DNA of 64,000 nucleotides from Escherichia coli (GTDB lineage Bacteria > Pseudomonadota > Gammaproteobacteria > Enterobacterales > Enterobacteriaceae), in NCBI RefSeq assembly GCF_022846255.1, contig NZ_AP025682.1. One strand, written 5' to 3'. The translations under genes and the position numbers were made by a program. The notes under the pieces were generated by a model. It saw nothing but the letters and a program-made list of their open reading frames with translations. It was not told the origin of the DNA and searched no databases. Below, piece by piece: positions 10,917 through 48,616 of this stretch (position 1 is its first letter; each line of letters opens with the position of its first letter).

Positions 10917-11907
<991 letters not shown>

Positions 11908-18922: not shown

Positions 18923-19009
18923 GCGAAGGTGGCGGAATTGGTAGACGCGCTAGCTTCAGGTGTTAGTGTCCTTACGGACGTGGGGGTTCAAGTCCCCCCC
19001 CTCGCACCA
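18923..19009 (+). tRNA. leuQ: tRNA-Leu (anticodon CAG)
   Basis: 87-nt GCGAAGGTGGCGGAATTGGTAGACGCG...CTCGCACCA with CAG anticodon and long variable arm; first of three tandem copies. Confidence 0.9.
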
Positions 19010-19037
19010 AAAACCACGTTGATATTGCTCGCACTGG

Positions 19038-19124
19038 GCGAAGGTGGCGGAATTGGTAGACGCGCTAGCTTCAGGTGTTAGTGTTCTTACGGACGTGGGG
19101 GTTCAAGTCCCCCCCCTCGCACCA
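19038..19124 (+). tRNA. leuP: tRNA-Leu (anticodon CAG), variant copy
   Basis: Same 87-nt tRNA; one C-to-T difference in the variable arm (GTGTTCTTACGG vs GTGTCCTTACGG), which keeps pairing as G-U. Confidence 0.9.
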
Positions 19125-19158
19125 AACGAGGCGATATCAAAAAAAGTAAGATGACTGT

Positions 19159-19245
19159 GCGAAGGTGGCGGAATTGGTAGACGCGCTAGCTTCAGGTGTT
19201 AGTGTCCTTACGGACGTGGGGGTTCAAGTCCCCCCCCTCGCACCA
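19159..19245 (+). tRNA. leuV: tRNA-Leu (anticodon CAG)
   Basis: Third tandem copy, identical to the first. Confidence 0.9.
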
Positions 19246-30550: not shown

Positions 30551-32224
30551 TTATCGGCTATCCATGATTAACGTTTCCAGCACATCTAATTCACTGACTA
30601 TTTTTGCCAGTGTTTCATCACTGACTTCTTGCCTTGCGCGCATCTGGTAAATAGCCGCGCGTTTGGCATTTAACGCCGCCAGATTAAATGTTCTTTCCAG
30701 CTTCGCACGCTGCATATGCAGGGAATTATCATTAGGCGACATATCCTCTTCACTATGTCGCATATAACCGATAACTCTGGCCCCCGTTTCCATAATCAAC
30801 TCGTTATCGAGGTTTTCTGTTCTGGCGCGCAGCAAACGTTGCTCGGTCTTTTGCACACTCAGTATGGCCATTTTAGCCATAAACAGATCGGCAGCTTCCT
30901 CTTCTTTTTGTCGGTTATCGCTGAAAATCCCCACATTTTTCCCCAGTAATAACGGCAGAATAATAATGCCGCAAACCAGCGAAAAGAGGATCACACCTGT
31001 GGCGAGAAATACCAGCAAGTAACGCCCGGGAAAAGGTGTGCCATCCGGCAGCAATAACGGGATAGAAAGCACCCCCGCAAGCGTGATAGCTCCGCGCACC
31101 CCCGCAAAGGTCGCCAGCAGCATATGACGCGTTTTATATCCAGCAAACAGCATCGGATGTTTGCCGGGTCGTTTACGGCTATACAGACGCATCAGCCAAA
31201 GCCAGCCCAGGCGCACAACCATTAACGCCAGGTAGATCCAAATGACATCAAGGAGCAGCGATCCGGTGTCCACCAGTGGATCGTTTTCTGCACGGATCAG
31301 TGATTCCGAAATAATGCCCGGCAGTTGTAAGCCTAAAATCAGAAACACCATGCCGTTAAAGACATATTCAAGCATCGACCAGCTACTTTTAGCTTTAATT
31401 CTCAGGCGAATAGGCGCGCGGTGGACTACGCCAATGCGACTGGTTGTTAACCCCGCGGCGACAGCGGCAAGAATGCCAGATAAGCCAAAATGTTCCGCAA
31501 CCAGATAAACAATAAACGGCAACAGAAGCATCAATACAATCTGAATGGAAGGTTCATCGTGAGCATATCGGCTGATCAACAGCAGCCCTTTACCATATAA
31601 CCAGGTAACAGCGATCCCCACGGCAATACCGCCCAACGCAACGACAAAAAACGCAATGGTTGCGCCATGAACGCTGAATTCCATCGTTCCCATCGTCACT
31701 GCAACAGCAAATTTCAACGCCACCAGGCCGGAAGCATCATTCATCAACGCTTCGCCTTCGAGCACTTCCTGGATGTTTTTGCTGATACGCCCTTTCCCGA
31801 CAATCCCCAGCAACGCCACGGCATCGGTAGGCGACAACACGGCGGCTAATGCGAAAACAGCGATGAGCGGCACATTCGGTAAGAGTAAATGAATCACATA
31901 GCCGACACCAAAAATAGTGATTAGTACCAACACAAGTGCCAGGCTGATAATTTCCCGGCTGTGCTTGATCAATTCTTTAGGTTGTATTTTTGAACTTTCA
32001 GCAAACAACAGGGGTGGTATAAACAATAAGAGAAAAAGTTCAGGATTGAATTCCACATGCAGACCAAATATAGGCTGGGCCAGTACTGCACCAGCGGCAA
32101 TCTGGATTAAAGGAAGTGGTATCTGGACAGGAGACAGACGTGTAAGCACGCTGGTTAATGATACTACCAACGTAAGAATTAAAATTGTTAAAAGTATTTC
32201 CATATAATAAACAGGCTTCCTCAT
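30551..32224 (-). CDS. CPA1-family Na+/H+ (cation/proton) antiporter with C-terminal cytoplasmic domain
   Basis: 557-aa ORF, many TM segments, NhaP/NHE-like; start ambiguous between ATG at 32224 and ATG at 32203. Confidence 0.75.
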   Translation of the reverse strand: MRKPVYYMEILLTILILTLVVSLTSVLTRLSPVQIPLPLIQIAAGAVLAQPIFGLHVEFNPELFLLLFIPPLLFAESSKIQPKELIKHSREIISLALVLVLITIFGVGYVIHLLLPNVPLIAVFALAAVLSPTDAVALLGIVGKGRISKNIQEVLEGEALMNDASGLVALKFAVAVTMGTMEFSVHGATIAFFVVALGGIAVGIAVTWLYGKGLLLISRYAHDEPSIQIVLMLLLPFIVYLVAEHFGLSGILAAVAAGLTTSRIGVVHRAPIRLRIKAKSSWSMLEYVFNGMVFLILGLQLPGIISESLIRAENDPLVDTGSLLLDVIWIYLALMVVRLGWLWLMRLYSRKRPGKHPMLFAGYKTRHMLLATFAGVRGAITLAGVLSIPLLLPDGTPFPGRYLLVFLATGVILFSLVCGIIILPLLLGKNVGIFSDNRQKEEEAADLFMAKMAILSVQKTEQRLLRARTENLDNELIMETGARVIGYMRHSEEDMSPNDNSLHMQRAKLERTFNLAALNAKRAAIYQMRARQEVSDETLAKIVSELDVLETLIMDSR

Positions 32225-32893
32225 TCATAAATAATGGATATTATTAATTTAATTTCATAAAAAGCGCTCTGGTTAGCACTTAACGTTAATCATTAATCAC
32301 TGCGTTCACTCACATGATCAGAAGGAACCCAGTAAAATAAGTTTTCAAGTTGATAACAAATTCACCATGTGAATATTTACTGCCTTTCCCCGTTGTAACG
32401 AATCGTCCGTTACTCTCTGATTTCCTTGCCGAACAAGTTATTTAGTGAATGACGGCTTTCTTTTAATATCAGCATGAATTATACGTTCAGCAAATGTATT
32501 AAATCAGCACTAAATAAATTTAATGGATACCACCATTCTGCGTCAACACTTAGTTTTTATCTGTATTGACAATTTAAAATGGCCGCAGCCAAATTAATGA
32601 TTTTATTTTTAATAAATCATCAACAGAATAAGAGATCTTATCAGCGGTAACTAAACTCATCAGAGGGTGTTCCTTGTAACGTCATGCATTACATAACTTT
32701 AAAATATACAATCAAAAAATGCATTAAAAACCGATTAAAAGCAGCAAAGTATTACCCGGTGCACGAATTTATGATACATCTGCAGCCATTCTGCTATTCG
32801 CTGACTACTTTTCAGTAATGACTGCTTTTTCATAAGGTTTCACTCCCGACAACAATGTTGGAGTTTTATTTTCTTAGCATGGAGTAAGTAAAG
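32225..32893. promoter_or_regulatory. AT-rich divergent intergenic region between the antiporter gene and the TRAP operon
   Basis: About 670 bp, very AT-rich, no ORF of 60 aa or more; contains a TTGACA-like hexamer. Confidence 0.35.
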
Positions 32894-33865
32894 ATGAGCA
32901 AAATAATAGCGATGCTAATTACTGTCAGTACCTTTTTTTTACCGTCAATAATCCAGGCAAAACCTATTTCAATAAAAGTTGCCTATGAAAATAACCCTGG
33001 AGAACCCCTGGATGTAGTCATGCGTTACTGGGCAGACCTATTAAATAAAAAAAGTAATGGCGAAATAACACTTGCGCTCTATCCCAGCTCCCAATTGGGA
33101 TCAAAACAGGATGTCACCGAGCAAGCCATGATGGGCATGAATGTCATAACCTTGAGTGATGTGGCCTTTCTTGCCGATTATGAACCCGATTTGGGGATTT
33201 TGTTTGGACCGTATCTGACTGACGATCCGCAAAAACTGTTCAAAATATATGAAAGCGACTGGTTTAAACAAAAAAATGAAAGTCTGAAGAAAAAGGGAAT
33301 TCATGTGGTAATGAATAATTATCTCTATGGCACTCGACAGATTATTTCGAAAAAACCCATTCGCACCGTTGACGATCTCGCAGGTTTAAAAATTCGCGTT
33401 CCTAATAACGTCATGCAAATAAAAGCCATTCAGGCGATGGGGGCAACACCAACTCCCATGCCATTAGGCGAAGTTTATCCCGCATTAACCCAGGGCGTTA
33501 TTGACGGCGTAGAAAACCCAATTTCAGTGCTGCAAGGGCAAAAACTGTATGAGCAGGCAAGATATCTGACAATGGTTAACTACCTGACAAATACCTCAGT
33601 GTGGATAGGTGGTGAAGCCTTCTTTAGCACCCTTTCACCAGAACAACTGGAGATGATCCACCAGACCGGCTATGAAGCGGGTGTCTATAGCCAGAAACTC
33701 ACTCTTGAGCGTGATGCCGAAATGTTGAAAACCATGCAGGCAGCCGGCGTCGAAGTGATCTATCCCGATACTGGACCATTCCAGAAGAAAGCACGCGAAG
33801 TTTACTCTCAATTCCCGGAATGGACACCAGGTCTGTACGAAACCATTCAACAGCAACTGCAATAA
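32894..33865 (+). CDS. TRAP transporter substrate-binding protein (DctP family)
   Basis: 323-aa ORF with signal peptide; markedly AT-rich codon usage; followed by DctQ/DctM-like genes. Confidence 0.8.
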   Translation: MSKIIAMLITVSTFFLPSIIQAKPISIKVAYENNPGEPLDVVMRYWADLLNKKSNGEITLALYPSSQLGSKQDVTEQAMMGMNVITLSDVAFLADYEPDLGILFGPYLTDDPQKLFKIYESDWFKQKNESLKKKGIHVVMNNYLYGTRQIISKKPIRTVDDLAGLKIRVPNNVMQIKAIQAMGATPTPMPLGEVYPALTQGVIDGVENPISVLQGQKLYEQARYLTMVNYLTNTSVWIGGEAFFSTLSPEQLEMIHQTGYEAGVYSQKLTLERDAEMLKTMQAAGVEVIYPDTGPFQKKAREVYSQFPEWTPGLYETIQQQLQ

Positions 33866-33928
33866 GCATTAATGCTCAGCGTCCTGCCTCATCTCTCTTA
33901 GGCAGGACACGCACTAACAGGAGGTTTC

Positions 33929-34402
33929 ATGCGTCTTTTTGGCAAAGTGGCAGAATTTAGTGCTGCCTTTGCGCTATTCGTTCTGGTTGTGGTGACAATT
34001 GGAGCGGTATTTATGCGTTATTTCATCGGCCAACCGCTTCAATGGACAGAAGAAATGTCGGGAATGCTGATGATTTGGGTGGTGATGTTAGGTGGAGTGG
34101 TGGCGGAACGTGACAGGGCGCACCTGACCATTCCCTTCCTGATGGAGATGCTTCCAGGCAAACTCAGGCGTGTTATTGCAGTACTGGTCGCCCTTCTCTC
34201 CATCGCACTGCTGCTTTATATGGCCTGGCTGGGCTACCGACTAGCCGAAATGGCGCAGTTTAAAGTGACACAAATTCTGAAGGTTTCCTGGTTCTGGATC
34301 GATCTGGCGGTCCCTGTCGGCGCACTGGCAACGGCTATTTATACCCTCTACTGGTTAATAAACGATACAAAACAATCCGATAGCGGAGACAAAATGCAAT
34401 GA
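33929..34402 (+). CDS. TRAP transporter small permease (DctQ family)
   Basis: 157-aa, 4-TM ORF; overlaps the next gene by 4 nt. Confidence 0.8.
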   Translation: MRLFGKVAEFSAAFALFVLVVVTIGAVFMRYFIGQPLQWTEEMSGMLMIWVVMLGGVVAERDRAHLTIPFLMEMLPGKLRRVIAVLVALLSIALLLYMAWLGYRLAEMAQFKVTQILKVSWFWIDLAVPVGALATAIYTLYWLINDTKQSDSGDKMQ

Positions 34403-35670
34403 GTTGGTTATTGATTATTCCGCTAATGATCGTCTGTTTGTTTCTCAACATTCGGGTCTATCTGGCGATGTTTATTGGCATCATCGCTTACTTTTTATTC
34501 TTCTCCAGCGTACCGATTGAAATTGCCGTGCAAAGACTAATCGCGCCAACGCAAAGCCCATCATTGCTGGCCATTCCGTTTTTTATCTTGCTAGGCACAC
34601 TAATGAGCTACACCGGCATTGCCGAACGCATCCTGCACATTGCCAACGTTCTGGTGGGGAAAATGCGCGGCGGACTGGGCGTGGCAAACATTCTCGTCAG
34701 CACCATGATGGGCGGCGTCAGCGCCTCTAACCTTGCTGACGCGGCGATGCTGTCGCGCATGATGGTGCCGGAGATGGAGCGTAAAGGCTACAATCGCGCG
34801 TTTGCCGCCGCCATTACCGCTGGTGGCTCGTTAGTCACCCCGATCATACCGCCTGGAATAGCCCTGATTATTTACGGTCTGGTTGCCGACGTCTCTATCG
34901 GAAAAATGTTTATCGCCGGACTGGTACCTGGTTTGCTATGCGCAGTCGTACTGATGTTTACCGTCTACCTTGTCGCCCGCAAAACTAACGCTAAACCCTC
35001 GCGTGAAAGCTGGCCTACGGGCAAAGAGGTGGTGTTCTCGCTGGGACAGGCCTGGCCTGCGCTGTTCCTCATTTTTGCTGTGGTGGGTGGTATTCGCGCT
35101 AACATTTTCACCCCAACAGAAGCAGGTGCAGTAGCGGTGCTAATCGTGCTGGCGATTGGCTTTTTTATCTATCGTGAAATGCGGATTTCTCATGTCGTCA
35201 AAGCATTGGGCGAAACGGCACGCGCAACCGCATCGGTGATGCTGGTAATCATGGCCAGCGCCGCATTGGGATGGATTTTCTCAATGGAACATGCTGGTGT
35301 CGCAGTGGCGAATTTTGTGACTTCGCTGACCGAAAACAAATACATGTTCCTGTTGATTATCAACATATTGCTGCTGACGCTGGGGATGTTTCTGGAAGGA
35401 AACGCCATTTTGCTGATCCTGGTACCACTATTAAAACCGGTGGTCGAACACTTTGGCATCGATCCGGTGCATTTTGGCATCATCATGATCTTCAACCTGT
35501 CGATTGGCGCATTCACGCCACCGGTAGGTACCGTGATGCTGCTGGTATGTAATATCACGCAAGTTTCGGTGGGAAATTTCTTTAAACAATCCCTGCCCCT
35601 ACTGGCGGCTCTACTGTTAATGCTAATGCTGGTGACATATATCCCGGCGATTTCACTGTTCCTGGTTTAA
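34399..35670 (+). CDS. TRAP transporter large permease (DctM family)
   Basis: 423-aa polytopic membrane ORF; ATGA overlap with the DctQ-like gene. Confidence 0.8.
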   Translation: MSWLLIIPLMIVCLFLNIRVYLAMFIGIIAYFLFFSSVPIEIAVQRLIAPTQSPSLLAIPFFILLGTLMSYTGIAERILHIANVLVGKMRGGLGVANILVSTMMGGVSASNLADAAMLSRMMVPEMERKGYNRAFAAAITAGGSLVTPIIPPGIALIIYGLVADVSIGKMFIAGLVPGLLCAVVLMFTVYLVARKTNAKPSRESWPTGKEVVFSLGQAWPALFLIFAVVGGIRANIFTPTEAGAVAVLIVLAIGFFIYREMRISHVVKALGETARATASVMLVIMASAALGWIFSMEHAGVAVANFVTSLTENKYMFLLIINILLLTLGMFLEGNAILLILVPLLKPVVEHFGIDPVHFGIIMIFNLSIGAFTPPVGTVMLLVCNITQVSVGNFFKQSLPLLAALLLMLMLVTYIPAISLFLV

Positions 35671-35712: not shown

Positions 35713-37377
35713 TTAAAACGTTTCCCAGTTCTCCTCGCTATCTGCCACGGCCATTTTGCGCGGCGTAGCTGGCGTCACGGTTTTTACCACAGCCGATGCT
35801 TCACGCTGCTGTTGCTGCTGTTGCTGAATCCGGAACACTGCCACTGCTTCGGTCAGGCGACTGGCCTGCTCTTCCAGCGCGGCGGCGGCGGCGGCAGATT
35901 CTTCCACCAGCGCGGCGTTCTGTTGAGTTACCCGGTCCATCTCAGCAACCGCTAAGCCAACCTGATCGATACCACGGCTCTGCTCATCAGAAGCAGAAGC
36001 AATTTCGCCCATAATGTCCGTCACGCGGGTCACGGCACTGACAATCTCCGCCATTGTTTCCCCTGCGCTTTCGACCAGCGTAGAGCCAACATCTACTTTC
36101 CCCACCGAGTCTTCAATCAGGCTTTTAATTTCACGAGCCGCCTGAGCGCTGCGCTGGGCCAGATTACGCACTTCACCCGCGACCACCGCAAAACCGCGCC
36201 CTTGCTCACCCGCGCGCGCTGCTTCAACCGCCGCGTTCAAAGCCAGAATATTGGTCTGGAAGGCAATGCCGTCAATTACGCTGATAATATCGGCGATTTT
36301 CTGCGAACTGGTGGAGATATCGCGCATAGTCTGCACCACGTTATCTACCACTTTGCCGCCGCGTTGCGCCGTTTCAGAAGCACTTAACGCCAGGTGGCTG
36401 GCCTGGCGCGCATTTTCGGCGTTCTGCTTCACCGTTGCGGTCAGTTGCTCCATGCTGGCTGCCGTCTCTTCCAGCGAAGCGGCCTGTTGCTCGGTGCGCG
36501 AAGAGAGATCGTTATTGCCGGTAGCGATTTCGCTGGCACCGCTATAGATGGCATTGGCCCCGTTGCGCACATCACCGACGGTACGCATCAGCTCTCCCTG
36601 CATATGGCGCAAACTCTCAGCCAGTTGCCCCATCTCATTAGAGCCATCCACCTCAATCGGTTTCACCAGATCGCCGCCTGCAATATGACGAATGCTGTCA
36701 ATCAGGCGATTCATTGGCGCTACCAACGAGGCTTTAATACCGAACCAGACGGCGAAGATGACCGCCAGTACGACGATCATCACGCCCACCAGAATCCACA
36801 TCGCCTGGCTGTAGGAGGCATTGTTATCGCTGACGGCGATATCATAGAGCCGATCGTTTTGCTCCATGTAAGCCACATACTGCTTCTCGAAACCGTCCTG
36901 ATATCCCTGGGTCGGCTGATCAAAGAACTCGTTGATTTTGCCTGCACCTAACAGTTGGATCAGCTCCGCCAGCGCATTGTGATAAATATCGTAATTACGT
37001 TTGATCTCTGCCGCTGCGGCGGTGCTCTGACGCGGGTCACGCGGCAACGCTTCGTAATCCGCCCAGTTTTTTTCCGCCTGTTTCAGCGAAATACTGGCAC
37101 TCTGCATCAGCTCAGCAACGGTTGAACCGCTACCAATATTATTCTGATCCATCATGTAGCGGATACCCGCGCGGTTGAGGGTGTTACGCGTCTGCAACAA
37201 CGCGACCCAGCTGCCATTCAGCGTGGATTGCTGCTGGCGAATGGTTTGTAAAACAGTGAAATTTTCTTTGTCATTCTTTAAGGCATTAAAGAACAGACCG
37301 CCTGATGTCAGTTGTAAAAGGCCAAAAACGGCCAAAACCAGCAGTAAGCTGGTCACGATCTTGATACGTTTTAACAT
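35713..37377 (-). CDS. tsr: Methyl-accepting chemotaxis protein I (serine chemoreceptor)
   Basis: 554-aa ORF ending ...EENWETF; HAMP and MCP signalling domains; seven consecutive Gln codons in the C-terminal linker. Confidence 0.93.
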
Positions 37378-37495
37378 GGTTTCTCTTTCCTGTGGACCGA
37401 TGCAAGATTTTCGGCCTGGAAAGGAAAAACTTTATGAAAAGGTGTAACCCGCCATCCATGGAAAAACCAGGCGCTGGTTATCAGATATTAAAAAG

Positions 37496-37942
37496 TTATT
37501 CATTATCGCCCGGAATGTCTTCTTGTCGGGAATTACCCAGAGCAATAAATTCCTCTAACAGATGGGTTAACTGTTGCATTTTCTCGGCAGTAAACTGAGC
37601 TTCAATCTGCCGATAGGCTTCTTCAATCTGTGTCTGAGCGCGGTTATACAGGGCCTGCCCCTCTTTGGTCAGCGAGATATAGAGCTTCCGCTGATCATTG
37701 ATCGGCTTTAATCGCAACACTAAACCGTCGCGTTCCATCCTCGTGAGGATCCCGGTCAGGCTTGGGCGCAAAATGCAGGCGCGATACGCCAGATCGTGAA
37801 AATCCATTGATGGGCTTTCCGCCAGAATACGCACGATGCGCCACTGTTGCTCAGTCAAATTATGCCGTTTAACGATTGGGCGAAAATAACTCATCGCCGC
37901 TTCTCGCGCCTGGAGCAACGCAATGGTTAGTGAGTCGTGCAT
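37496..37942 (-). CDS. hpaR: MarR-family repressor of the hpa meta-cleavage operon
   Basis: ORF track 37496..37996; start at MHDSLTIALLQAREAAMSYF. Confidence 0.88.
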   Translation of the reverse strand: MHDSLTIALLQAREAAMSYFRPIVKRHNLTEQQWRIVRILAESPSMDFHDLAYRACILRPSLTGILTRMERDGLVLRLKPINDQRKLYISLTKEGQALYNRAQTQIEEAYRQIEAQFTAEKMQQLTHLLEEFIALGNSRQEDIPGDNE

Positions 37943-38213
37943 TATCTTTCCCCTGAAAAATTCAAAATCATTAATATAGAAACAGTTAATCGTCACGTTA
38001 CCGGGACTGAGCTATCCCCGCAATTCCTCATTTTATCAAAATTGAGCATACTTTATTAACTTACTGATATTTAGTATTTTATTACCTGCAAATGTAAATA
38101 GTTTGTTAATTAGATCACATTTACATCACTTACTTTTGCCAAACTACGCAATCGGGAATAAAAGTAATCATTAACATATTAATGATTAAAATGATCGAAT
38201 CCGAGGAGTGGTA
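37943..38213. promoter_or_regulatory. hpaR/hpaG divergent promoter-operator region
   Basis: AT-rich interval between divergent hpaR and hpaG. Confidence 0.45.
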
Positions 38214-39503
38214 ATGAAAGGCACTATCTTCGCCGTAGCGTTGAACCATCGCAGCCAGCTTGATGCATGGCAGGAAGCGTTCCAGCAATCCCCCTACAAA
38301 GCCCCGCCTAAAACTGCGGTCTGGTTTATTAAACCGCGCAATACGGTGATTGGTTGCGGTGAACCGATTCCCTTTCCACAGGGTGAAAAGGTACTGAGCG
38401 GTGCGACAGTTGCGCTGATTGTGGGAAAAACGGCGACGAAAGTACGTGAAGAAGATGCGGCAGAGTACATCGCCGGATATGCGCTGGCTAACGACGTCAG
38501 CCTGCCGGAAGAGAGCTTTTACCGCCCGGCAATCAAAGCAAAATGTCGTGATGGATTCTGCCCCATTGGCGAAACCGTGGCTCTCAGCAATGTCGATAAT
38601 CTGACCATCTATACCGAGATCAACGGGCGTCCTGCCGATCACTGGAACACCGCCGATTTACAACGTAATGCCGCGCAGTTGCTGAGCGCCCTGAGCGAAT
38701 TTGCCACGCTGAATCCAGGCGATGCCATTCTGCTCGGCACGCCACAGGCGCGCGTGGAAATACAGCCAGGCGATCGCGTTCGTGTTCTCGCAGAAGGTTT
38801 CCCGCCACTGGAAAATCCGGTAGTGGACGAACGTGAAGTGACCACGCGCAAGAGCTTCCCAACGCAGCCACACCCGCACGGCACGCTGTTTGCCCTCGGC
38901 CTGAACTACGCCGACCACGCCAGCGAACTGGAATTTAAGCCACCGGAAGAACCGCTGGTGTTCCTGAAAGCGCCGAATACCCTCACGGGCGATAACCAGA
39001 CCTCCGTGCGCCCGAACAATATTGAATACATGCACTACGAAGCGGAGCTGGTGGTAGTTATTGGCAAGCAGGCGCGTAACGTCAGCGAAGCCGATGCCAT
39101 GGATTATGTCGCGGGCTACACCGTGTGTAACGACTACGCCATTCGCGACTATCTGGAAAACTACTACCGCCCTAACCTGCGGGTAAAAAGCCGCGACGGA
39201 CTGACGCCGATGCTTTTAACCATCGTGCCGAAAGAGGCGATCCCGGACCCGCATAATCTGACCCTTCGCACCTTCGTCAACGGCGAGTTACGCCAGCAAG
39301 GCACCACCGCCGATCTGAACTTCAGCGTGCCCTTCCTGATCGCCTACTTAAGCGAATTTATGACCCTGAATCCGGGCGACATGATCGCCACCGGCACACC
39401 AAAAGGCTTATCTGACGTGGTGCCTGGCGATGAAGTAGTGGTGGAAGTCGAAGGCGTGGGCCGCCTGGTGAACCGAATTGTGAGTGAGGAAACAGCGAAA
39501 TGA
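38214..39503 (+). CDS. hpaG: Bifunctional 5-carboxymethyl-2-oxo-hex-3-ene-1,7-dioate decarboxylase / 2-hydroxyhepta-2,4-diene-1,7-dioate isomerase (FAH family, duplicated domain)
   Basis: ORF track 38208..39503; start at MKGTIF with GAGGAG RBS; 429 aa. Confidence 0.88.
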   Translation: MKGTIFAVALNHRSQLDAWQEAFQQSPYKAPPKTAVWFIKPRNTVIGCGEPIPFPQGEKVLSGATVALIVGKTATKVREEDAAEYIAGYALANDVSLPEESFYRPAIKAKCRDGFCPIGETVALSNVDNLTIYTEINGRPADHWNTADLQRNAAQLLSALSEFATLNPGDAILLGTPQARVEIQPGDRVRVLAEGFPPLENPVVDEREVTTRKSFPTQPHPHGTLFALGLNYADHASELEFKPPEEPLVFLKAPNTLTGDNQTSVRPNNIEYMHYEAELVVVIGKQARNVSEADAMDYVAGYTVCNDYAIRDYLENYYRPNLRVKSRDGLTPMLLTIVPKEAIPDPHNLTLRTFVNGELRQQGTTADLNFSVPFLIAYLSEFMTLNPGDMIATGTPKGLSDVVPGDEVVVEVEGVGRLVNRIVSEETAK

Positions 39504-40966
39504 AAAAAGTAAATCATTGGATCAACGGCAAAAATGTTGCAGGTAACGACTACTTCCAGACTACCAATCCGGCAACGGGTGAAGTGCTGGCGGATGTGGC
39601 CTCTGGCGGTGAAGCGGAGATCAATCAGGCGGTAGCGGCAGCGAAAGAGGCGTTCCCGAAATGGGCCAATCTGCCGATGAAAGAGCGTGCGCGCCTGATG
39701 CGCCGTCTGGGCGATTTGATCGACCAGAACGTGCCTGAGATCGCCGCGATGGAAACCGCGGACACGGGCCTGCCGATCCATCAGACCAAAAATGTGTTGA
39801 TCCCACGCGCTTCTCACAACTTTGAATTTTTCGCGGAAGTCTGCCAGCAGATGAACGGCAAGACCTATCCGGTTGACGACAAGATGCTCAACTACACGCT
39901 GGTGCAACCGGTAGGCGTTTGTGCGCTGGTGTCACCGTGGAACGTGCCGTTTATGACCGCCACATGGAAGGTCGCGCCGTGTCTTGCGCTGGGCAATACC
40001 GCGGTGCTGAAGATGTCGGAACTCTCCCCGCTGACCGCTGACCGCCTGGGTGAGCTGGCGCTGGAAGCCGGTATTCCGGCAGGCGTGCTGAACGTGGTAC
40101 AGGGCTACGGCGCAACCGCAGGGGATGCGCTGGTTCGTCATCATGACGTACGTGCCGTGTCGTTCACCGGCGGTACGGCCACCGGGCGCAACATCATGAA
40201 AAAAGCCGGGCTGAAAAAATACTCCATGGAACTGGGCGGTAAATCGCCGGTGCTGATTTTTGAAGATGCTGATATTGAACGCGCGCTGGACGCCGCCCTG
40301 TTCACCATCTTCTCGATCAACGGCGAGCGCTGCACCGCCGGTTCGCGCATCTTTATTCAGCAAAGCATCTACCCGGAATTCGTTAAACGCTTTGCCGAAC
40401 GCGCCAACCGTCTGCGCGTGGGCGATCCGAATGATCCGAATACCCAGGTTGGGGCGCTTATCAGCCAGCAACACTGGGAAAAAGTCTCCGGCTATATCCG
40501 TCTCGGCATTGAAGAAGGCGCAACCCTGCTGGCGGGCGGTCCGGATAAACCGTCCGACCTGCCTGCGCACCTGAAAGGCGGCAACTTCCTGCGCCCAACG
40601 GTGCTGGCTGACGTTGATAACCGTATGCGCGTCGCCCAGGAAGAGATTTTCGGGCCGGTCGCCTGCCTGCTGCCGTTTAAAGATGAAGCCGAAGGCTTAC
40701 GCCTGGCAAACGACGTGGAGTACGGCCTCGCGTCGTACATCTGGACGCAGGATGTCAGCAAAGTGTTACGCCTGGCGCGTGGCATTGAAGCAGGCATGGT
40801 GTTCGTCAACACCCAGAACGTGCGCGACCTGCGCCAGCCGTTTGGCGGCGTAAAAGCCTCCGGCACCGGGCGTGAAGGCGGTGAGTACAGCTTCGAAGTG
40901 TTCGCGGAAATGAAGAACGTCTGCATTTCCATGGGCGACCATCCAATTCCGAAATGGGGAGTCTGA
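39500..40966 (+). CDS. hpaE: 5-carboxymethyl-2-hydroxymuconate semialdehyde dehydrogenase (NAD aldehyde dehydrogenase)
   Basis: 488-aa ALDH-family ORF; ATGA overlap with hpaG. Confidence 0.88.
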   Translation: MKKVNHWINGKNVAGNDYFQTTNPATGEVLADVASGGEAEINQAVAAAKEAFPKWANLPMKERARLMRRLGDLIDQNVPEIAAMETADTGLPIHQTKNVLIPRASHNFEFFAEVCQQMNGKTYPVDDKMLNYTLVQPVGVCALVSPWNVPFMTATWKVAPCLALGNTAVLKMSELSPLTADRLGELALEAGIPAGVLNVVQGYGATAGDALVRHHDVRAVSFTGGTATGRNIMKKAGLKKYSMELGGKSPVLIFEDADIERALDAALFTIFSINGERCTAGSRIFIQQSIYPEFVKRFAERANRLRVGDPNDPNTQVGALISQQHWEKVSGYIRLGIEEGATLLAGGPDKPSDLPAHLKGGNFLRPTVLADVDNRMRVAQEEIFGPVACLLPFKDEAEGLRLANDVEYGLASYIWTQDVSKVLRLARGIEAGMVFVNTQNVRDLRQPFGGVKASGTGREGGEYSFEVFAEMKNVCISMGDHPIPKWGV

Positions 40967-40967
40967 T

Positions 40968-41819
40968 ATGGGTAAGTTAGCGTTAGCCGCCAAGATCACG
41001 CACGTACCGTCGATGTATCTCTCTGAACTGCCAGGGAAAAACCACGGTTGCCGCCAGGGCGCGATCGACGGGCATAAAGAGATCAGCAAGCGTTGCCGGG
41101 AAATGGGCGTCGATACCATTATCGTTTTCGATACTCACTGGCTGGTCAACAGTGCTTATCACATCAACTGTGCAGACCATTTTGAAGGCGTCTACACCAG
41201 CAACGAGCTGCCGCATTTTATTCGTGACATGACCTACAACTACGAGGGCAACCCGGAGTTGGGGCAGCTAATTGCCGATGAAGCGATAAAACTCGGCGTG
41301 CGGGCGAAAGCGCACAACATTCCCAGCCTGAAACTGGAATACGGCACGCTGGTGCCAATGCGCTACATGAATGAAGACAAGCACTTCAAAGTGGTTTCCA
41401 TTTCGGCTTTCTGCACGGTTCACGATTTTGCCGACAGCCGCAAGCTGGGCGAAGCGATTCTGAAAGCGATCGAACAGTACGACGGCACCGTGGCGGTCCT
41501 TGCCAGCGGTTCGTTATCGCACCGCTTTATTGACGATCAGCGTGCGGAAGAAGGGATGAACAGCTACACCCGCGAGTTCGACCGCCAGATGGACGAGCGC
41601 GTGGTGAAGCTGTGGCGCGAAGGCCAGTTCAAAGAGTTCTGCAATATGCTGCCGGAGTACGCCGACTACTGCTACGGCGAAGGCAATATGCACGACACGG
41701 TGATGCTGCTGGGGATGCTCGGCTGGGATAAATACGACGGCAAGGTGGAGTTTATCACCGAGCTGTTCCCAAGCTCCGGTACTGGTCAGGTTAACGCTGT
41801 TTTCCCGCTTCCCGCGTAA
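40968..41819 (+). CDS. hpaD: 3,4-dihydroxyphenylacetate 2,3-dioxygenase (extradiol)
   Basis: 283-aa ORF in hpa operon position. Confidence 0.85.
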   Translation: MGKLALAAKITHVPSMYLSELPGKNHGCRQGAIDGHKEISKRCREMGVDTIIVFDTHWLVNSAYHINCADHFEGVYTSNELPHFIRDMTYNYEGNPELGQLIADEAIKLGVRAKAHNIPSLKLEYGTLVPMRYMNEDKHFKVVSISAFCTVHDFADSRKLGEAILKAIEQYDGTVAVLASGSLSHRFIDDQRAEEGMNSYTREFDRQMDERVVKLWREGQFKEFCNMLPEYADYCYGEGNMHDTVMLLGMLGWDKYDGKVEFITELFPSSGTGQVNAVFPLPA

Positions 41820-41828
41820 GGAACCACC

Positions 41829-42209
41829 ATGCCGCACTTTATCGTGGAATGTACTGAAAATATTCGTCAAGAAGCCCGCTTACCTGAGCTGTTTGCCAGT
41901 GTTAACACCGCACTGGCAGCGACGGGGATTTTTCCGCTTGGGGGAATACGTAGCCGGGCACACTGGATCGATACCTGGCAAATGGCTGATGGCAAGCACG
42001 ATTACGCCTTTGTGCATATGACGCTAAAAATCGGCAGCGGGCGCAGTCTGGAAAGCCGTCAGGAAGTGGGCGAAATGCTGTTTGATCTGATTAAAACGCA
42101 CTTCGCCTCACTGATGGAGAGCCGTTACCTGGCGCTTTCATTTGAGATTGCAGAGCTGCACCCGACGTTGAATTTCAAACAGAACAACGTACACGCGTTG
42201 TTTAAATAA
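41829..42209 (+). CDS. hpaF: 5-carboxymethyl-2-hydroxymuconate isomerase
   Basis: 126-aa [21 protein letters not shown]. Confidence 0.85.
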
Positions 42210-42214
42210 ATTTG

Positions 42215-42262
42215 CACCAGCTTCCAGGCCGGATGATAAGGCGCAGCCGCATCCGGCAATGC
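42215..42262. repeat. REP element between hpaF and hpaH
   Basis: GCCGGATGATAAGGCGCAGCCGCATCCGGCA palindrome. Confidence 0.7.
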
Positions 42263-42276
42263 CACAGGATATCGCT

Positions 42277-43080
42277 ATGTTCGATAAACATACCCACACC
42301 CTGATCGCCCAGCGTCTGGATCAGGCAGAAAAACAGCGCGAACAGATCCGCGCGATCTCCCTGGATTACCCGGAGATCACCATCGAAGACGCTTACGCGG
42401 TGCAGCGCGAATGGGTTCGCCTGAAAATCGCCGAAGGCCGTACGCTGAAAGGCCACAAAATCGGACTGACCTCGAAAGCGATGCAGGCCAGCTCACAAAT
42501 CAGCGAACCAGATTACGGTGCACTGCTGGACGACATGTTCTTCCACGACGGCAGCGATATCCCGACCGATCGCTTTATCGTGCCGCGCATTGAAGTGGAG
42601 CTGGCTTTCGTGCTGGCAAAACCGCTGCGTGGGCCAAACTGCACGCTGTTCGACGTCTACAACGCCACGGACTATGTGATCCCGGCGCTGGAGCTGATCG
42701 ACGCTCGCTGCCACAACATCGATCCGGAAACCCAGCGCCCGCGTAAAGTGTTCGACACCATTTCTGATAACGCCGCCAATGCCGGGGTGATCCTCGGTGG
42801 TCGTCCCATTAAGCCCGATGAGTTGGATCTACGTTGGATCTCCGCCCTGATGTATCGCAATGGCGTGATTGAAGAAACCGGCGTCGCCGCTGGCGTGCTG
42901 AATCACCCGGCAAACGGCGTGGCCTGGCTGGCGAACAAACTCGCACCGTATGACGTACAACTGGAAGCCGGGCAAATCATTCTCGGTGGTTCGTTCACCC
43001 GCCCGGTTCCGGCGCGTAAGGGCGACACCTTCCACGTCGATTACGGCAACATGGGCTCCATTAGCTGCCGCTTTGTTTAA
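42277..43080 (+). CDS. hpaH: 2-oxo-hept-3-ene-1,7-dioate hydratase
   Basis: ORF track 42259..43080; start at [14 protein letters not shown]; 267 aa. Confidence 0.85.
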
Positions 43081-43090
43081 GGAGAGAACG

Positions 43091-43879
43091 ATGGAAAACA
43101 GTTTTAAAGCGGCGCTGAAAGCAGGCCGCCCGCAGATCGGATTATGGCTGGGGCTAAGTAGCAGCTACAGCGCAGAGTTACTGGCCGGAGCAGGATTCGA
43201 CTGGTTATTGATCGACGGTGAGCACGCGCCGAACAACGTGCAAACCGTGCTCACCCAGCTACAGGCGATTGCGCCCTACCCCAGCCAGCCGGTAGTGCGC
43301 CCATCCTGGAACGATCCGGTGCAAATCAAACAACTGCTGGATGTCGGTACACAAACCTTACTGGTGCCGATGGTACAAAACGCCGACGAAGCCCGTGAAG
43401 CGGTACGCGCCACCCGTTATCCCCCCGCCGGTATTCGTGGTGTGGGCAGTGCGCTGGCCCGCGCCTCGCGCTGGAACCGTATTCCGGATTACCTGCAAAA
43501 AGCCAACGATCAAATGTGCGTGCTGGTGCAGATCGAAACTCGTGAGGCAATGAAGAACCTACCGCAGATTCTGGACGTGGAAGGGGTAGACGGCGTGTTT
43601 ATCGGCCCGGCGGATCTGAGCGCCGATATGGGTTATGCCGGTAATCCGCAGCACCCGGAAGTGCAGGCCGCCATTGAACAGGCGATCGTGCAGATCCGTG
43701 AAGCGGGCAAAGCTCCGGGGATCCTGATCGCCAATGAGCAACTGGCAAAACGCTACCTGGAACTGGGCGCGCTATTTGTCGCCGTCGGCGTTGACACCAC
43801 CCTGCTCGCCCGCGCCGCCGAAGCGCTGGCAGCACGGTTTGGTGCTCAGGCCACCGCCGTGAAGCCCGGCGTGTATTAA
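43091..43879 (+). CDS. hpaI: 2,4-dihydroxyhept-2-ene-1,7-dioate aldolase (HpcH/HpaI)
   Basis: ORF track 42950..43879; start at [19 protein letters not shown] with GGAGAG RBS; 262 aa. Confidence 0.88.
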
Positions 43880-43880
43880 T

Positions 43881-43951
43881 GCCGGATGCGCTTATCCGGT
43901 TTACAGCAGTACCAAATTGTAGCCGGATAAGGCGTTTGTGCTGCATCCGCC
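43881..43951. repeat. REP pair downstream of hpaI
   Basis: GCCGGATGCGCTTATCCGG and GTAGCCGGATAAGGCGTTTGTGCTGCATCCGCC. Confidence 0.7.
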
Positions 43952-43996
43952 ATAAACCTTGTCGTACCCTACAAAAATCCCATTAGAGGAAGAAAA

Positions 43997-45373
43997 ATGA
44001 GCGACACCTCACCTGCCATACCGGAGAGTATCGATCCGGCGAATCAGCATAAAGCGCTGACTGCCGGACAACAGGCGGTTATTAAGAAGTTGTTTCGCCG
44101 CCTGATCGTCTTTCTGTTCGTGCTGTTTATCTTCTCGTTCCTTGATCGCATCAACATTGGTTTTGCTGGACTAACGATGGGACGCGACCTCGGTCTGAGC
44201 GCCACCATGTTTGGCCTCGCTACCACCCTGTTCTACGCCGCTTATGTCATCTTCGGCATTCCCAGCAACATTATGCTGAGTATTGTCGGTGCGCGGCGCT
44301 GGATCGCCACCATCATGGTGCTCTGGGGCATCGCCTCTACGGCCACCATGTTTGCCACTGGCCCCACCAGCTTATACGTACTGCGTATACTGGTTGGCAT
44401 TACCGAAGCCGGCTTTCTGCCTGGTATTCTGCTGTATTTAACCTTCTGGTTTCCGGCCTATTTCCGCGCCCGTGCCAACGCCTTGTTTATGGTAGCAATG
44501 CCGGTAACGACAGCGCTGGGATCTATCGTTTCCGGCTACATTTTGTCGCTGGATGGCGTAATGGCATTAAAAGGCTGGCAGTGGCTGTTTTTGCTGGAAG
44601 GCTTCCCGTCGGTATTACTCGGCGTCATGGTGTGGTTCTGGCTTGATGACTCACCGGACAAAGCTAAGTGGCTGACGAAAGAAGACAAAAAATGCCTGCA
44701 AGAGATGATGGATAACGATCGTCTGACGCTGGTTCAGCCAGAGGGAGCCATCAGTCACCACGCCATGCAACAACGCAGCATGTGGCGGGAGATCTTCACT
44801 CCGGTGGTGATGATGTATACCCTGGCGTATTTCTGCCTGACCAACACACTTAGTGCAATCAGCATCTGGACACCGCAGATCCTGCAAAGCTTTAATCAGG
44901 GTAGCAGTAATATCACCATCGGCCTGCTGGCCGCCGTACCGCAGATTTGTACCATTCTCGGGATGATCTACTGGAGCCGTCACTCAGATCGCCGCCAGGA
45001 ACGAAGGCATCACACCGCCCTTCCTTATTTGTTCGCTGCCGCTGGTTGGTTACTGGCTTCGGCAACTGATCACAACATGATCCAGATGCTGGGGATCATT
45101 ATGGCTTCGACCGGATCATTCAGCGCAATGGCGATTTTCTGGACAACACCGGATCAGTCCATCAGCCTGCGGGCACGAGCGATCGGTATTGCGGTGATCA
45201 ACGCCACTGGCAACATTGGTTCAGCGTTAAGTCCGTTTATGATCGGCTGGTTGAAAGATCTGACCGGCAGCTTTAACAGTGGATTGTGGTTTGTTGCCGC
45301 GCTGCTGGTGATTGGTGCGGGGATTATCTGGGCAATTCCAATGCAGTCCTCCCGTCCGCGAGCGACCCCGTAA
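43997..45373 (+). CDS. hpaX: 4-hydroxyphenylacetate permease (MFS)
   Basis: 458-aa 12-TM MFS ORF. Confidence 0.85.
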   Translation: MSDTSPAIPESIDPANQHKALTAGQQAVIKKLFRRLIVFLFVLFIFSFLDRINIGFAGLTMGRDLGLSATMFGLATTLFYAAYVIFGIPSNIMLSIVGARRWIATIMVLWGIASTATMFATGPTSLYVLRILVGITEAGFLPGILLYLTFWFPAYFRARANALFMVAMPVTTALGSIVSGYILSLDGVMALKGWQWLFLLEGFPSVLLGVMVWFWLDDSPDKAKWLTKEDKKCLQEMMDNDRLTLVQPEGAISHHAMQQRSMWREIFTPVVMMYTLAYFCLTNTLSAISIWTPQILQSFNQGSSNITIGLLAAVPQICTILGMIYWSRHSDRRQERRHHTALPYLFAAAGWLLASATDHNMIQMLGIIMASTGSFSAMAIFWTTPDQSISLRARAIGIAVINATGNIGSALSPFMIGWLKDLTGSFNSGLWFVAALLVIGAGIIWAIPMQSSRPRATP

Positions 45374-45382
45374 GGAACGACG

Positions 45383-46273
45383 ATGTGCGATAGTCAGATT
45401 GCCAATATTGATATCAGCAAAGAGTACGATGAAAGCCTGGGCACGGACGATGTGCATTATCAGTCCTTCGCCCGCATGGCGGCCTTTTTTGGCCGCCATA
45501 TGCTGCCACATCGCCACGAACAGTACTTTCAGATGCATTTCCTCAATAGCGGACAGATTGAGCTACAGCTTGACGATCATCGCTACTCGGTGGAAGCGCC
45601 CCTGTTTGTCCTGACGCCGCCGTCAGTACCTCATGCGTTTATTACGGAGTCTGACGCCGACGGTCATGTGTTGACGGTACGGGAAGATCTGATCTGGCCC
45701 CTGCTGGAAGTTCTTTATCCGGGCACTCGGGAAACCTTCGGCCTGCCGGGGATTTGCCTGTCACTGGCAGATAAACCCGACGAACTGGCAGCGCTGGAAC
45801 ACTATTGGCAACTGATAGAGCGGGAATCGGTAGAACAACTGCCTGGACGGGAACACACCCTGACGCTACTAGCACAGGCAGTATTCACCCTACTGCTGCG
45901 TAATGCAAAACTCGACGACCATGCCGCCAGCGGGATGCGCGGAGAATTAAAACTGTTCCAGCGTTTTAATATGCTGATTGAAAGCCATTTTCATCAGCAC
46001 TGGACGGTACCGGATTACGCTAACGAACTGCATATCACCGAATCACGACTCACCGACATCTGCCGCCGCTTTGCCAACCGTCCGCCAAAACGGTTGATTT
46101 TCGACAGGCAGCTACGAGAAGCCAAGCGGCTGCTGCTGTTTTCTGATAACGCCGTGAACAATATTGCCTGGCAACTCGGTTTTAAGGATCCGGCTTATTT
46201 TGCGCGCTTTTTTAATCGCTTAGTCGGTTGCTCGCCCAGTGCTTATCGCGCCAAAAAAGTACCTGTGACGTGA
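45383..46273 (+). CDS. hpaA: AraC/XylS-family activator of hpaBC
   Basis: 296-aa ORF with C-terminal AraC HTH. Confidence 0.85.
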   Translation: MCDSQIANIDISKEYDESLGTDDVHYQSFARMAAFFGRHMLPHRHEQYFQMHFLNSGQIELQLDDHRYSVEAPLFVLTPPSVPHAFITESDADGHVLTVREDLIWPLLEVLYPGTRETFGLPGICLSLADKPDELAALEHYWQLIERESVEQLPGREHTLTLLAQAVFTLLLRNAKLDDHAASGMRGELKLFQRFNMLIESHFHQHWTVPDYANELHITESRLTDICRRFANRPPKRLIFDRQLREAKRLLLFSDNAVNNIAWQLGFKDPAYFARFFNRLVGCSPSAYRAKKVPVT

Positions 46274-46523
46274 AAATCCCTTAGCCTTAACGGGAAACCA
46301 GGCACCACCTGCTATTCCCCTTTCTCCGCCTGGAGCAAGGGGATTTAGTAACGTTAAAAATCGCGAAAAGCGACCTCGATCACAAAACCGTACCCGACCT
46401 GAAAAGTACCAGCCATTGTCCCAAAAGTGTCTTCCCGTAATCGCCCCTGCAAGCTTCAATTGAATAACAAAAACAACACACAAAATTAACAATCATATTC
46501 CGATTAATACTGTAGAGGTCGAT
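46274..46523 (+). promoter_or_regulatory. hpaBC promoter region
   Basis: 250-bp non-coding interval upstream of hpaB. Confidence 0.4.
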
Positions 46524-48086
46524 ATGAAACCAGAAGATTTCCGCGCCAGTACCCAACGTCCGTTCACCGGGGAAGAGTATCTGAAAAGCCTGCAGGATGG
46601 TCGCGAGATCTATATCTATGGCGAGCGAGTGAAAGACGTCACCACTCATCCGGCATTTCGTAATGCGGCAGCGTCTGTTGCCCAACTGTACGACGCGCTG
46701 CACAAACCGGAGATGCAGGACTCTCTGTGTTGGAACACCGACACCGGCAGCGGCGGCTATACCCATAAATTCTTCCGCGTGGCGAAAAGTGCCGACGACC
46801 TGCGCCAGCAACGCGACGCCATCGCTGAATGGTCACGCCTGAGCTATGGCTGGATGGGCCGTACCCCAGACTACAAAGCCGCTTTCGGTTGCGCACTGGG
46901 CGCAAATCCGGGCTTTTACGGTCAGTTCGAGCAGAACGCCCGTAACTGGTACACCCGTATTCAGGAAACTGGCCTCTACTTTAACCACGCGATTGTTAAC
47001 CCACCGATTGATCGTCATTTGCCGACCGATAAAGTGAAAGACGTTTACATCAAGCTGGAAAAAGAGACTGACGCCGGGATTATCGTCAGCGGTGCGAAAG
47101 TGGTTGCCACCAACTCGGCGCTGACTCACTACAACATGATTGGCTTCGGCTCGGCACAAGTGATGGGCGAAAACCCGGACTTCGCACTGATGTTCGTTGC
47201 GCCAATGGATGCCGATGGCGTGAAATTAATCTCCCGCGCCTCTTATGAGATGGTCGCGGGTGCTACCGGCTCGCCATACGACTACCCGCTCTCCAGCCGC
47301 TTCGATGAGAACGATGCGATCCTGGTGATGGATAACGTACTGATCCCGTGGGAAAACGTGTTGATCTACCGCGATTTCGATCGCTGCCGTCGCTGGACGA
47401 TGGAAGGCGGTTTCGCCCGTATGTATCCGCTGCAAGCCTGTGTGCGCCTGGCAGTGAAATTAGACTTCATTACGGCACTGCTGAAAAAATCACTCGAATG
47501 TACCGGCACCCTGGAGTTCCGTGGCGTGCAGGCCGATCTCGGTGAAGTGGTGGCGTGGCGCAACACCTTCTGGGCATTGAGTGACTCGATGTGTTCAGAA
47601 GCAACGCCGTGGGTCAACGGGGCTTATTTACCGGATCATGCCGCACTGCAAACCTATCGCGTACTGGCACCAATGGCCTACGCGAAGATCAAAAACATTA
47701 TCGAACGCAACGTTACCAGTGGCCTGATCTATCTCCCTTCCAGTGCCCGTGACCTGAACAATCCGCAGATCGACCAGTATCTGGCGAAGTATGTGCGCGG
47801 TTCGAACGGTATGGATCACGTCCAGCGCATCAAGATCCTCAAACTGATGTGGGATGCTATTGGCAGCGAATTTGGTGGTCGTCACGAGCTGTATGAAATC
47901 AACTACTCCGGTAGCCAGGATGAGATTCGCCTGCAGTGTCTGCGTCAGGCACAAAGCTCCGGCAATATGGACAAGATGATGGCGATGGTTGATCGCTGCC
48001 TGTCGGAATACGACCAGAACGGCTGGACTGTGCCGCACCTGCACAACAACGACGATATCAACATGCTGGATAAGCTGCTGAAATAA
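46524..48086 (+). CDS. hpaB: 4-hydroxyphenylacetate 3-monooxygenase, oxygenase component
   Basis: 520-aa ORF MKPEDFRASTQRPFTGEEYLKSLQDGREIYIYGERV. Confidence 0.9.
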   Translation: MKPEDFRASTQRPFTGEEYLKSLQDGREIYIYGERVKDVTTHPAFRNAAASVAQLYDALHKPEMQDSLCWNTDTGSGGYTHKFFRVAKSADDLRQQRDAIAEWSRLSYGWMGRTPDYKAAFGCALGANPGFYGQFEQNARNWYTRIQETGLYFNHAIVNPPIDRHLPTDKVKDVYIKLEKETDAGIIVSGAKVVATNSALTHYNMIGFGSAQVMGENPDFALMFVAPMDADGVKLISRASYEMVAGATGSPYDYPLSSRFDENDAILVMDNVLIPWENVLIYRDFDRCRRWTMEGGFARMYPLQACVRLAVKLDFITALLKKSLECTGTLEFRGVQADLGEVVAWRNTFWALSDSMCSEATPWVNGAYLPDHAALQTYRVLAPMAYAKIKNIIERNVTSGLIYLPSSARDLNNPQIDQYLAKYVRGSNGMDHVQRIKILKLMWDAIGSEFGGRHELYEINYSGSQDEIRLQCLRQAQSSGNMDKMMAMVDRCLSEYDQNGWTVPHLHNNDDINMLDKLLK

Positions 48087-48103
48087 CGCAGCAGGAGGTT
48101 AAG

Positions 48104-48616
48104 ATGCAATTAGATGAACAACGCCTGCGCTTTCGTGACGCAATGGCCAGCCTGTCGGCAGCGGTAAATATTATCACCACCGAGGGCGACGCCGGGCAAT
48201 GCGGGATTACGGCAACGGCTGTCTGCTCGGTCACGGATACACCACCGTCGCTGATGGTGTGCATTAACGCCAACAGTGCGATGAACCCGGTTTTTCAGGG
48301 CAACGGTAAGTTGTGCGTCAACGTCCTCAACCATGAGCAGGAACTGATGGCACGCCACTTCGCGGGCATGACAGGCATGGCGATGGAAGAGCGTTTTAGC
48401 CTCTCATGCTGGCAAAAAGGTCCGCTGGCGCAGCCGGTGCTGAAAGGTTCGCTGGCCAGTCTTGAAGGTGAGATCCGCGATGTGCAGGCGATTGGCACAC
48501 ATCTGGTGTATCTGGTGGAGATTAAAAACATCATCCTCAGTGCAGAAGGTCACGGACTTATCTACTTTAAACGCCGTTTCCATCCGGTGATGCTGGAAAT
48601 GGAAGCTGCGATTTAA
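48104..48616 (+). CDS. hpaC: 4-hydroxyphenylacetate 3-monooxygenase, flavin reductase component
   Basis: 170-aa flavin-reductase-like ORF. Confidence 0.9.
   Translation: MQLDEQRLRFRDAMASLSAAVNIITTEGDAGQCGITATAVCSVTDTPPSLMVCINANSAMNPVFQGNGKLCVNVLNHEQELMARHFAGMTGMAMEERFSLSCWQKGPLAQPVLKGSLASLEGEIRDVQAIGTHLVYLVEIKNIILSAEGHGLIYFKRRFHPVMLEMEAAI

Follow-up and report, generated by a model that had tools for sequence, protein, structure and literature searches.

Does the 4-hydroxyphenylacetate (4-HPA) catabolic cluster found between tsr and btsT in some Escherichia coli strains represent a gain by these strains, or a loss from the strains that lack it? The question was addressed at a 64,000-nucleotide stretch of E. 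coli DNA (contig NZ_AP025682.1, assembly GCF_022846255.1; hereafter the window), in which the original prediction had placed a complete hpa cluster, inserted between the two genes, at 37496–48616. This segment is the already known, canonical and structurally intact E. coli hpa cluster, an ordinary variable part of the chromosome. It lies at its normal site and was very probably retained by vertical descent as an Enterobacteriaceae block, and deleted in K-12 and in about half or more of the E. coli sequenced. 4-HPA and 3-hydroxyphenylacetate (3-HPA) are gut-derived products of tyrosine and flavonoid breakdown, and the monooxygenase HpaBC is a widely used biocatalyst. The relevance of the cluster is mainly to strain typing and metabolic prediction.

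Gene coordinates were obtained from the open reading frame (ORF) list for 34.5–52 kb and from the annotation of strain 144 transferred via alignment. The predicted eleven genes, hpaR, hpaGEDFHI, hpaX, hpaA and hpaBC, were confirmed by the ORFs, by colinear alignment and by equivalog matches, hpaR being on the minus strand and the other ten on the plus strand. Positions 37496 and 48616 are the outer stop codons, those of hpaR and hpaC respectively. All eleven Hpa products scored above their NCBIfam equivalog cut-offs with end-to-end profile coverage. Between 37439 and 48702 the ORF list holds the hpa ORFs and their shadow frames, and no others. To the left, outside the cluster, lies tsr for the serine chemoreceptor (35713–37377, minus strand; NF011615 equivalog, 1–554 of 554), and to the right btsT, also called yjiY, for a pyruvate/H+ symporter (48886–51036, plus strand). 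Both flanking genes are so annotated in strain 144, K-12 and REL606, and the window BtsT is 99.6% identical to that of REL606.

Family assignments allow a role to be proposed for each product. HpaX, a predicted 4-hydroxyphenylacetate permease of the major facilitator superfamily (43997–45373; TIGR02332, 894 bits against a cut-off of 615), would import 4-HPA or 3-HPA, following its role in the literature, from which the roles of the other products are also taken. HpaB (46524–48086; TIGR02310, 1110 bits), the putative oxygenase component of 4-HPA 3-monooxygenase, and HpaC (48104–48616; NF012030, 1–170 of 170), its putative NADH:flavin reductase component, would hydroxylate either compound to 3,4-dihydroxyphenylacetate (homoprotocatechuate). 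The ring of this intermediate would be opened by extradiol cleavage by HpaD, a predicted homoprotocatechuate 2,3-dioxygenase (40968–41819; TIGR02298, 550 bits against 316). Conversion of the cleavage product to pyruvate and succinic semialdehyde would be carried out by five further enzymes. These are HpaE, a predicted 5-carboxymethyl-2-hydroxymuconate semialdehyde dehydrogenase (39500–40966; TIGR02299, 738 bits against 638); HpaF, a predicted 5-carboxymethyl-2-hydroxymuconate delta-isomerase (41829–42209; NF011605, 1–126 of 126); HpaG, a predicted bifunctional OPET decarboxylase/HHDD isomerase (38214–39503; NF011750, 1–429 of 429, 973 bits); HpaH, a predicted 2-oxo-hept-4-ene-1,7-dioate hydratase (42277–43080; TIGR02312, 1–267 of 267); and HpaI, a predicted 4-hydroxy-2-oxoheptanedioate aldolase (43091–43879; TIGR02311). 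Two putative regulators complete the set. HpaR, of the MarR family (37496–37942; TIGR02337, 201 bits against 121), would repress the meta-cleavage operon hpaGEDFHI via a palindromic operator, and HpaA, of the AraC/XylS family (45383–46273; TIGR02297, 390 bits against 275), would activate hpaBC.

Intactness was assessed against strain 144, against E. coli B and against solved structures. Each of the eleven genes has a start codon and a stop codon, with no internal stop. Over a region of ~12 kb the window is 98.3% identical in nucleotides to the annotated hpa cluster of strain 144, colinear with it and free of indels within the cluster. The only indel lies outside, at the edge of a 123-bp enterobacterial repetitive intergenic consensus (ERIC)-like element just upstream of the btsT start. 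This element is present in strain 144 (L001 15868–15994) and REL606, and absent from the window (~48867–48871) and from K-12. The hpa genes differ from those of strain 144 at 168 nucleotides and only 9 amino acids, which points to purifying selection. Compared with E. coli B REL606, this region of the window is 97.8% identical in nucleotides; the hpa proteins are of equal length and 98.8–100% identical, HpaR, HpaX and HpaC being 100% identical. HpaB matches PDB entries 6QYH and 6EB0 across its full length, HpaG aligns over residues 1–429 with 1GTT with three differences, and the top PDB matches of HpaI, again full length, are 2V5J and 4B5X. Thus no truncation or frameshift was found on alignment with the reference clusters, the only blemish being a missense change at an invariant residue of HpaG, considered below.

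Growth of REL606 on 4-HPA is documented, and Arg379 of HpaB is required for growth on 3-HPA in addition to 4-HPA (PMC7201708). The window HpaB carries Arg379, as in the BL21 type that uses both compounds, whereas REL606 has Cys at this position. With intact genes and this residue, the source strain is predicted to grow on both 4-HPA and 3-HPA, with the HpaG substitution I369N as a caveat, whereas K-12 and strains of phylogroups B2 and G would be unable to do so.

The identity to strain 144 is locally low at hpaI (95.6% of nucleotides), and over the hpaH–hpaI stretch (42277–43996) no complete E. coli genome exceeds 97.4%. A recent foreign hpaI allele was considered and ruled out, given this absence of any closer genome and the protein itself, whose sequence is that of the most frequent HpaI in E. 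coli, with 23,367 index blocks listing it. The nucleotide differences at hpaI are synonymous, and their pattern is that of divergence within a rare lineage.

The claim that this is the accessory module described for E. coli W, B and C is supported by the equivalogs, the REL606 alignment, the PDB matches and published work (PMC7180172, PMC7201708). For E. coli W, the order is hpaRGEDFHIXABC (GenBank Z37980; Prieto et al. 1996, as cited in PMC7180172). The window agrees in its eleven genes, in their order and orientation, in the two operons with hpaX, hpaA and hpaR, and in having intracluster repetitive extragenic palindromic (REP) elements. Strain 144, REL606 and PDB sequences served as proxies for W, and from these the window cluster differs at ~2% of nucleotides and at 0–5 residues per protein. 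E. coli B (REL606 and BL21(DE3)) has the cluster at the same site, reading from tsr-hpaR to hpaC-btsT; the spacer between hpaI and hpaX is 123 bp in REL606 and 117 bp in the window, and the window HpaG carries S335L and I369N relative to that of E. coli B. In E. coli C the genes are named hpc, and structures are available for HpcE/HpaG (1GTT) and HpcH/HpaI (2V5J). The three differences between the window HpaG and 1GTT are S335L, I369N and L218Q, glutamine at the last position being common to other E. coli.

How does the locus look where the cluster is missing? As predicted, K-12 lacks the cluster: in MG1655 tsr and btsT are adjacent, with no hpa genes. When the window was compared with K-12 by blastn and direct sequence comparison, the homology was found to end at 37438 and to resume at 48703, leaving a segment of 11,264 bp (37439–48702) without a BLAST match in K-12, which carries 133 unrelated bp at this point. 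The left limit lies 4 nucleotides beyond a match to a sigma-28 (FliA)-type promoter (37408–37434, minus strand; TAAAGTTT-N11-GCCGAAAA, one mismatch to consensus and no second match in the window), which we take to be the promoter of tsr. The right edge is fuzzy, since a palindrome at 48658–48673 has a diverged counterpart in K-12. This palindrome is an exact match to the CRP consensus TGTGA-N6-TCACA; it directly follows the hpaC terminator and belongs to the upstream region of btsT rather than to hpa. With the sigma-28 match on the left and the CRP consensus on the right, the hpa block lies exactly between the control regions of tsr and btsT. The 133-bp filler (L002 7464–7596 in the K-12 locus) does not differ between K-12 and the B2-like strain 1105, and it is shared by at least 2,752 of the 5,426 complete E. 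coli genomes that were searched with the window by megablast. The hpa cluster is carried by ~2,020–2,070 of these genomes (37–38%) and is absent from ~62%. According to a published report, phylogroups A, B1 and C have hpaB, and phylogroups B2 and G lack it (PMC12444784).

The polarity of this difference can be judged from the locus in other genera. One genome per GTDB species was sampled with HpaD as the query, and the loci of the best 80 of 382 relatives were compared with the window by tblastn and blastn. Among these, the order hpaR/GEDFHI/X/A/BC is widely conserved across Enterobacterales. To the left of the cluster, 15 loci have an orthologue of Tsr (84–87% amino acid identity, rising to 95% in the Escherichia locus L015); to the right, 19 loci have BtsT (93–98%). 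Nine loci have both, from six Enterobacter, two Pseudocitrobacter and one Citrobacter sp. In these three genera the tsr-hpa-btsT neighbourhood is 78–87% identical to the window in nucleotides over the cluster and its flanks. In several Klebsiella and Raoultella loci BtsT is again on the right; left of hpaR, the loci of these two genera yielded no orthologue of Tsr. Finally, in L015, a divergent genome labelled E. coli (89–96% nucleotide identity), the 118-bp spacer between tsr and hpaR is shared in full, its cluster side included.

These observations bear directly on the alternative in which this lineage gained the cluster by horizontal transfer, as a genomic island that went in between tsr and btsT. 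The absence of the cluster from K-12 and from most complete genomes, and its sharp borders relative to K-12, would fit an insertion, but the tsr-hpa-btsT arrangement in Enterobacter, Pseudocitrobacter and Citrobacter, the position of btsT in Klebsiella and Raoultella, and the identical left junction in a divergent Escherichia lineage would not. Nor was any signature of mobility found. The ORF list for 37439–48702 contains no integrase or transposase; no repeat of 8 nucleotides or more, direct or inverted, is common to the two borders; and no tRNA target lies near the cluster, the nearest tRNAs in the window being at 18.9–19.2 kb. Base composition gives a mixed picture. At 54.4%, the G+C content of the block exceeds that of the left flank (48.6%), as an island might show, but the G+C at third codon positions of the hpa genes (0.56–0.72) overlaps that of tsr (0.62) and btsT (0.68), and overall G+C is 54.6% in tsr and 55.6% in btsT. 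Moreover, the hpa genes are ~98% identical to those of other E. coli strains, the same divergence as that of tsr and btsT. With the evidence weighed in this manner, acquisition of the cluster as an island in this lineage appears highly improbable.

With the arrangement shared by other genera and by a divergent Escherichia lineage, and with no signature of mobility, a deletion accounts better for the lack of the cluster in K-12. Loss of the cluster by K-12 has been suggested before (PMC7201708). An ancient tsr-hpa-btsT arrangement deleted in part of E. coli is the most economical and most likely reading of the locus. In K-12, and in about half or more of the E. coli genomes sequenced, the deletion would have left the shared 133-bp junction. 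Therefore, of the predicted insertion between tsr and btsT, the position stands and the polarity does not, given the synteny in other genera and the lack of a mobility signature. In general terms, the missing hpa genes of K-12 would reflect a deletion at an ancient locus and not a gain by other strains, and to label the cluster an island would be misleading since the polarity is most likely that of loss in K-12.

Four observations nevertheless weigh against vertical retention followed by deletion. The 133-bp filler, compared with all loci fetched, gave matches only in K-12 and strain 1105; the hpa-positive loci, whether of E. coli or of other genera, gave none. The G+C content of the block (54.4%) is above the window mean of 51.0%. 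Escherichia species representatives other than L015 do not occur among the best 80 of 382 HpaD matches, so that the genus would need to have lost hpa often; the same absence could be cited for an insertion. Lastly, hpaE, hpaD and hpaH are Pseudocitrobacter-like, which shows partial horizontal exchange of the cluster and can likewise be counted in favour of acquisition.

This last point was seen when the window from 38214 to 43879 was compared with the two Pseudocitrobacter loci (L014 and L016). The genes hpaE, hpaD and hpaH are 92–96% identical in nucleotides and hpaG and hpaI 87–91%, whereas hpaR, hpaF, hpaX, hpaA, hpaC and tsr are only 79–83% identical. Such a mosaic argues for inter-genus homologous recombination within the meta-cleavage operon, and suggests that hpaE, hpaD and hpaH of Escherichia were exchanged with Pseudocitrobacter by this route. 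In other Enterobacterales (Enterobacter, Klebsiella/Raoultella, Citrobacter, Salmonella, Serratia and Photorhabdus), the gene set is the same, mostly in the same order, at 70–87% nucleotide identity to the window. Differences of arrangement do occur: hpaG is split or divergent in some other genera, and in Salmonella hpaBC is inverted on the other side of the cluster, which has neither tsr nor btsT as a neighbour. Across Enterobacter, Klebsiella and Raoultella (L018–L041), HpaX falls into two classes, of ~70% or ~90% amino acid identity to the window protein, while the neighbouring genes are uniform. The transporter gene hpaX thus seems to have been replaced in some lineages.

Although structurally intact, is the cluster also functional? 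The window HpaG carries S335L and I369N (39216–39320), both private to this lineage when compared with every other E. coli examined. Position 369 is Ile in 84 of 84 aligned sequences from other loci, representing more than 15 genera, and position 335 is Ser or Pro. With an invariant residue changed, one step of the pathway may be impaired; this weighs against a fully functional canonical cluster and could matter for the prediction of phenotype. Only five contigs, assembled from metagenomes and sequencing runs, are recorded as encoding exactly this HpaG, and all four that were fetched are 100% identical to the window in DNA. As the substitutions are identical in contigs from several sequencing runs, they are real lineage markers and not sequencing errors.

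The cluster might accordingly be complete but functionally compromised, I369N together with S335L damaging the C-terminal domain of HpaG (decarboxylase or isomerase), with the pathway blocked or leaky and the cluster in the course of being lost. The invariance of Ile369, the restriction of position 335 to Ser or Pro and the rarity of the exact protein in a large collection are consistent with such damage, as is the fact that the nearest relatives over the core-gene part of the window are B2-type strains already devoid of hpa. However, all eleven ORFs are intact, the other ten proteins are identical or nearly so to common functional alleles, synonymous changes dominate, and the variant has persisted, being found in contigs from several sequencing runs; a single missense change is not proof that activity is lost. 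Damage of this kind is therefore considered unlikely. This rare lineage, close to hpa-negative B2-type strains, might catch the pathway while it is being inactivated or retuned, ahead of the deletion that its relatives show, a scenario to which we would give little weight.

The window comes from a rarely sequenced E. coli lineage, as judged by sequence comparison. No complete RefSeq E. coli genome exceeds ~99.1% identity to any window segment tested, and matches of 100% were obtained only with metagenome contig ERZ929318 and the Logan assemblies DRR322657, ERR2357297 and ERR2349758. Over the left part of the window, with its conserved core genes, the closest genomes are those of the B2-type strains without hpa noted above. 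That the source lies outside the K-12 lineage, as predicted, is borne out by ~98% identity in the shared flanks, by a different restriction region and by a transporter segment that stands in place of lgoT.

REP elements had been predicted at two internal junctions. They were found at hpaF/hpaH and at hpaI/hpaX, with three cores in all. In a pattern search for the REP core GGATGC-N(0–16)-CTTATC, six occurrences were obtained in the window, against 0.17 expected, and half of them lie within the hpa cluster. One core (42235–42254, minus strand) is located in the 67-bp hpaF/hpaH spacer. It forms a hairpin in the centroid fold, but the folding energy of the 76-nucleotide stretch is no better than that of shuffled sequences (z = +0.40). 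The other two (43884–43896, plus strand, and 43926–43948, minus strand) form an inverted pair, resembling a bacterial interspersed mosaic element, in the 117-bp hpaI/hpaX spacer, with a fold of -31.5 kcal/mol (z = -2.9). In other E. coli strains the hpaF/hpaH spacer is 67 or 110 bp long with one REP core, and one to three cores are present at the hpaI/hpaX junction. An Rfam scan gave no match inside the cluster, where the REP elements fall below the threshold of the naRNA4 model, unlike a REP pair at 10954–11132.

Candidate control sites were located by repeat search and pattern matching. A perfect palindrome, TAATCATTAA-CATA-TTAATGATTA, occurs at 38165–38188, with 10-nucleotide arms that are 100% complementary, and ends 25 nucleotides upstream of the hpaG ATG. 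The HpaR site is described as being of the TTAA-N4-TTAA type, 'similar to E. coli W' (PMC7180172). The palindrome is of this type and is a candidate HpaR operator. The hpaA/hpaB spacer (46274–46523, plus strand, 250 bp) is 98.4% identical to that of strain 144 and of another E. coli locus. The HpaA-dependent hpaBC promoter is placed in this spacer from literature summarised in PMC7180172, and its presence here is putative.

A CRP-like site, TGTTA-N6-TCACA (38104–38119, plus strand, one mismatch), is found in the divergent control region of hpaR and hpaG. This match by itself is not above chance. The reading as a CRP site depends entirely on the known catabolite control of the hpa promoters. 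Directly after hpaC a hairpin followed by a T-run (48623–48655, plus strand) resembles an intrinsic terminator; its fold is -19.1 kcal/mol (z = -4.46), and none of 200 shuffled sequences was as stable. In a generic scan of 37300–49000 for sigma-70 promoters and terminators, the number of sites did not exceed that in shuffled sequence, and the hpaC terminator was not among them.

Some features of the surrounding DNA were also noted. Upstream of tsr, at 30551–35670, lgoT is replaced by a Na+/H+ exchanger and a TRAP (tripartite ATP-independent periplasmic) transporter (DctP, DctQ, DctM), as in B2-type and O26 strains. This segment and hpa occur together in only 262 of the 5,426 genomes. Farther upstream, three tandem tRNA-Leu(CAG) genes are found at 18923–19245, and the REP pair at 10954–11132, between yjjW and yjjV, corresponds to two adjacent REP-derived naRNA4 (RF02564) matches. 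Downstream of yjiA lies a defence region (52731–63542), which no complete E. coli genome matches at more than 97.2% identity. The two outermost ORFs of this region (52731–53465 and 62829–63542) have no Pfam match. Between them are located a gene for a GmrSD-type restriction endonuclease (53509–55608, minus strand) and the type I restriction-modification genes hsdM (55884–58238), hsdS (58238–59503) and hsdR (59500–62763).

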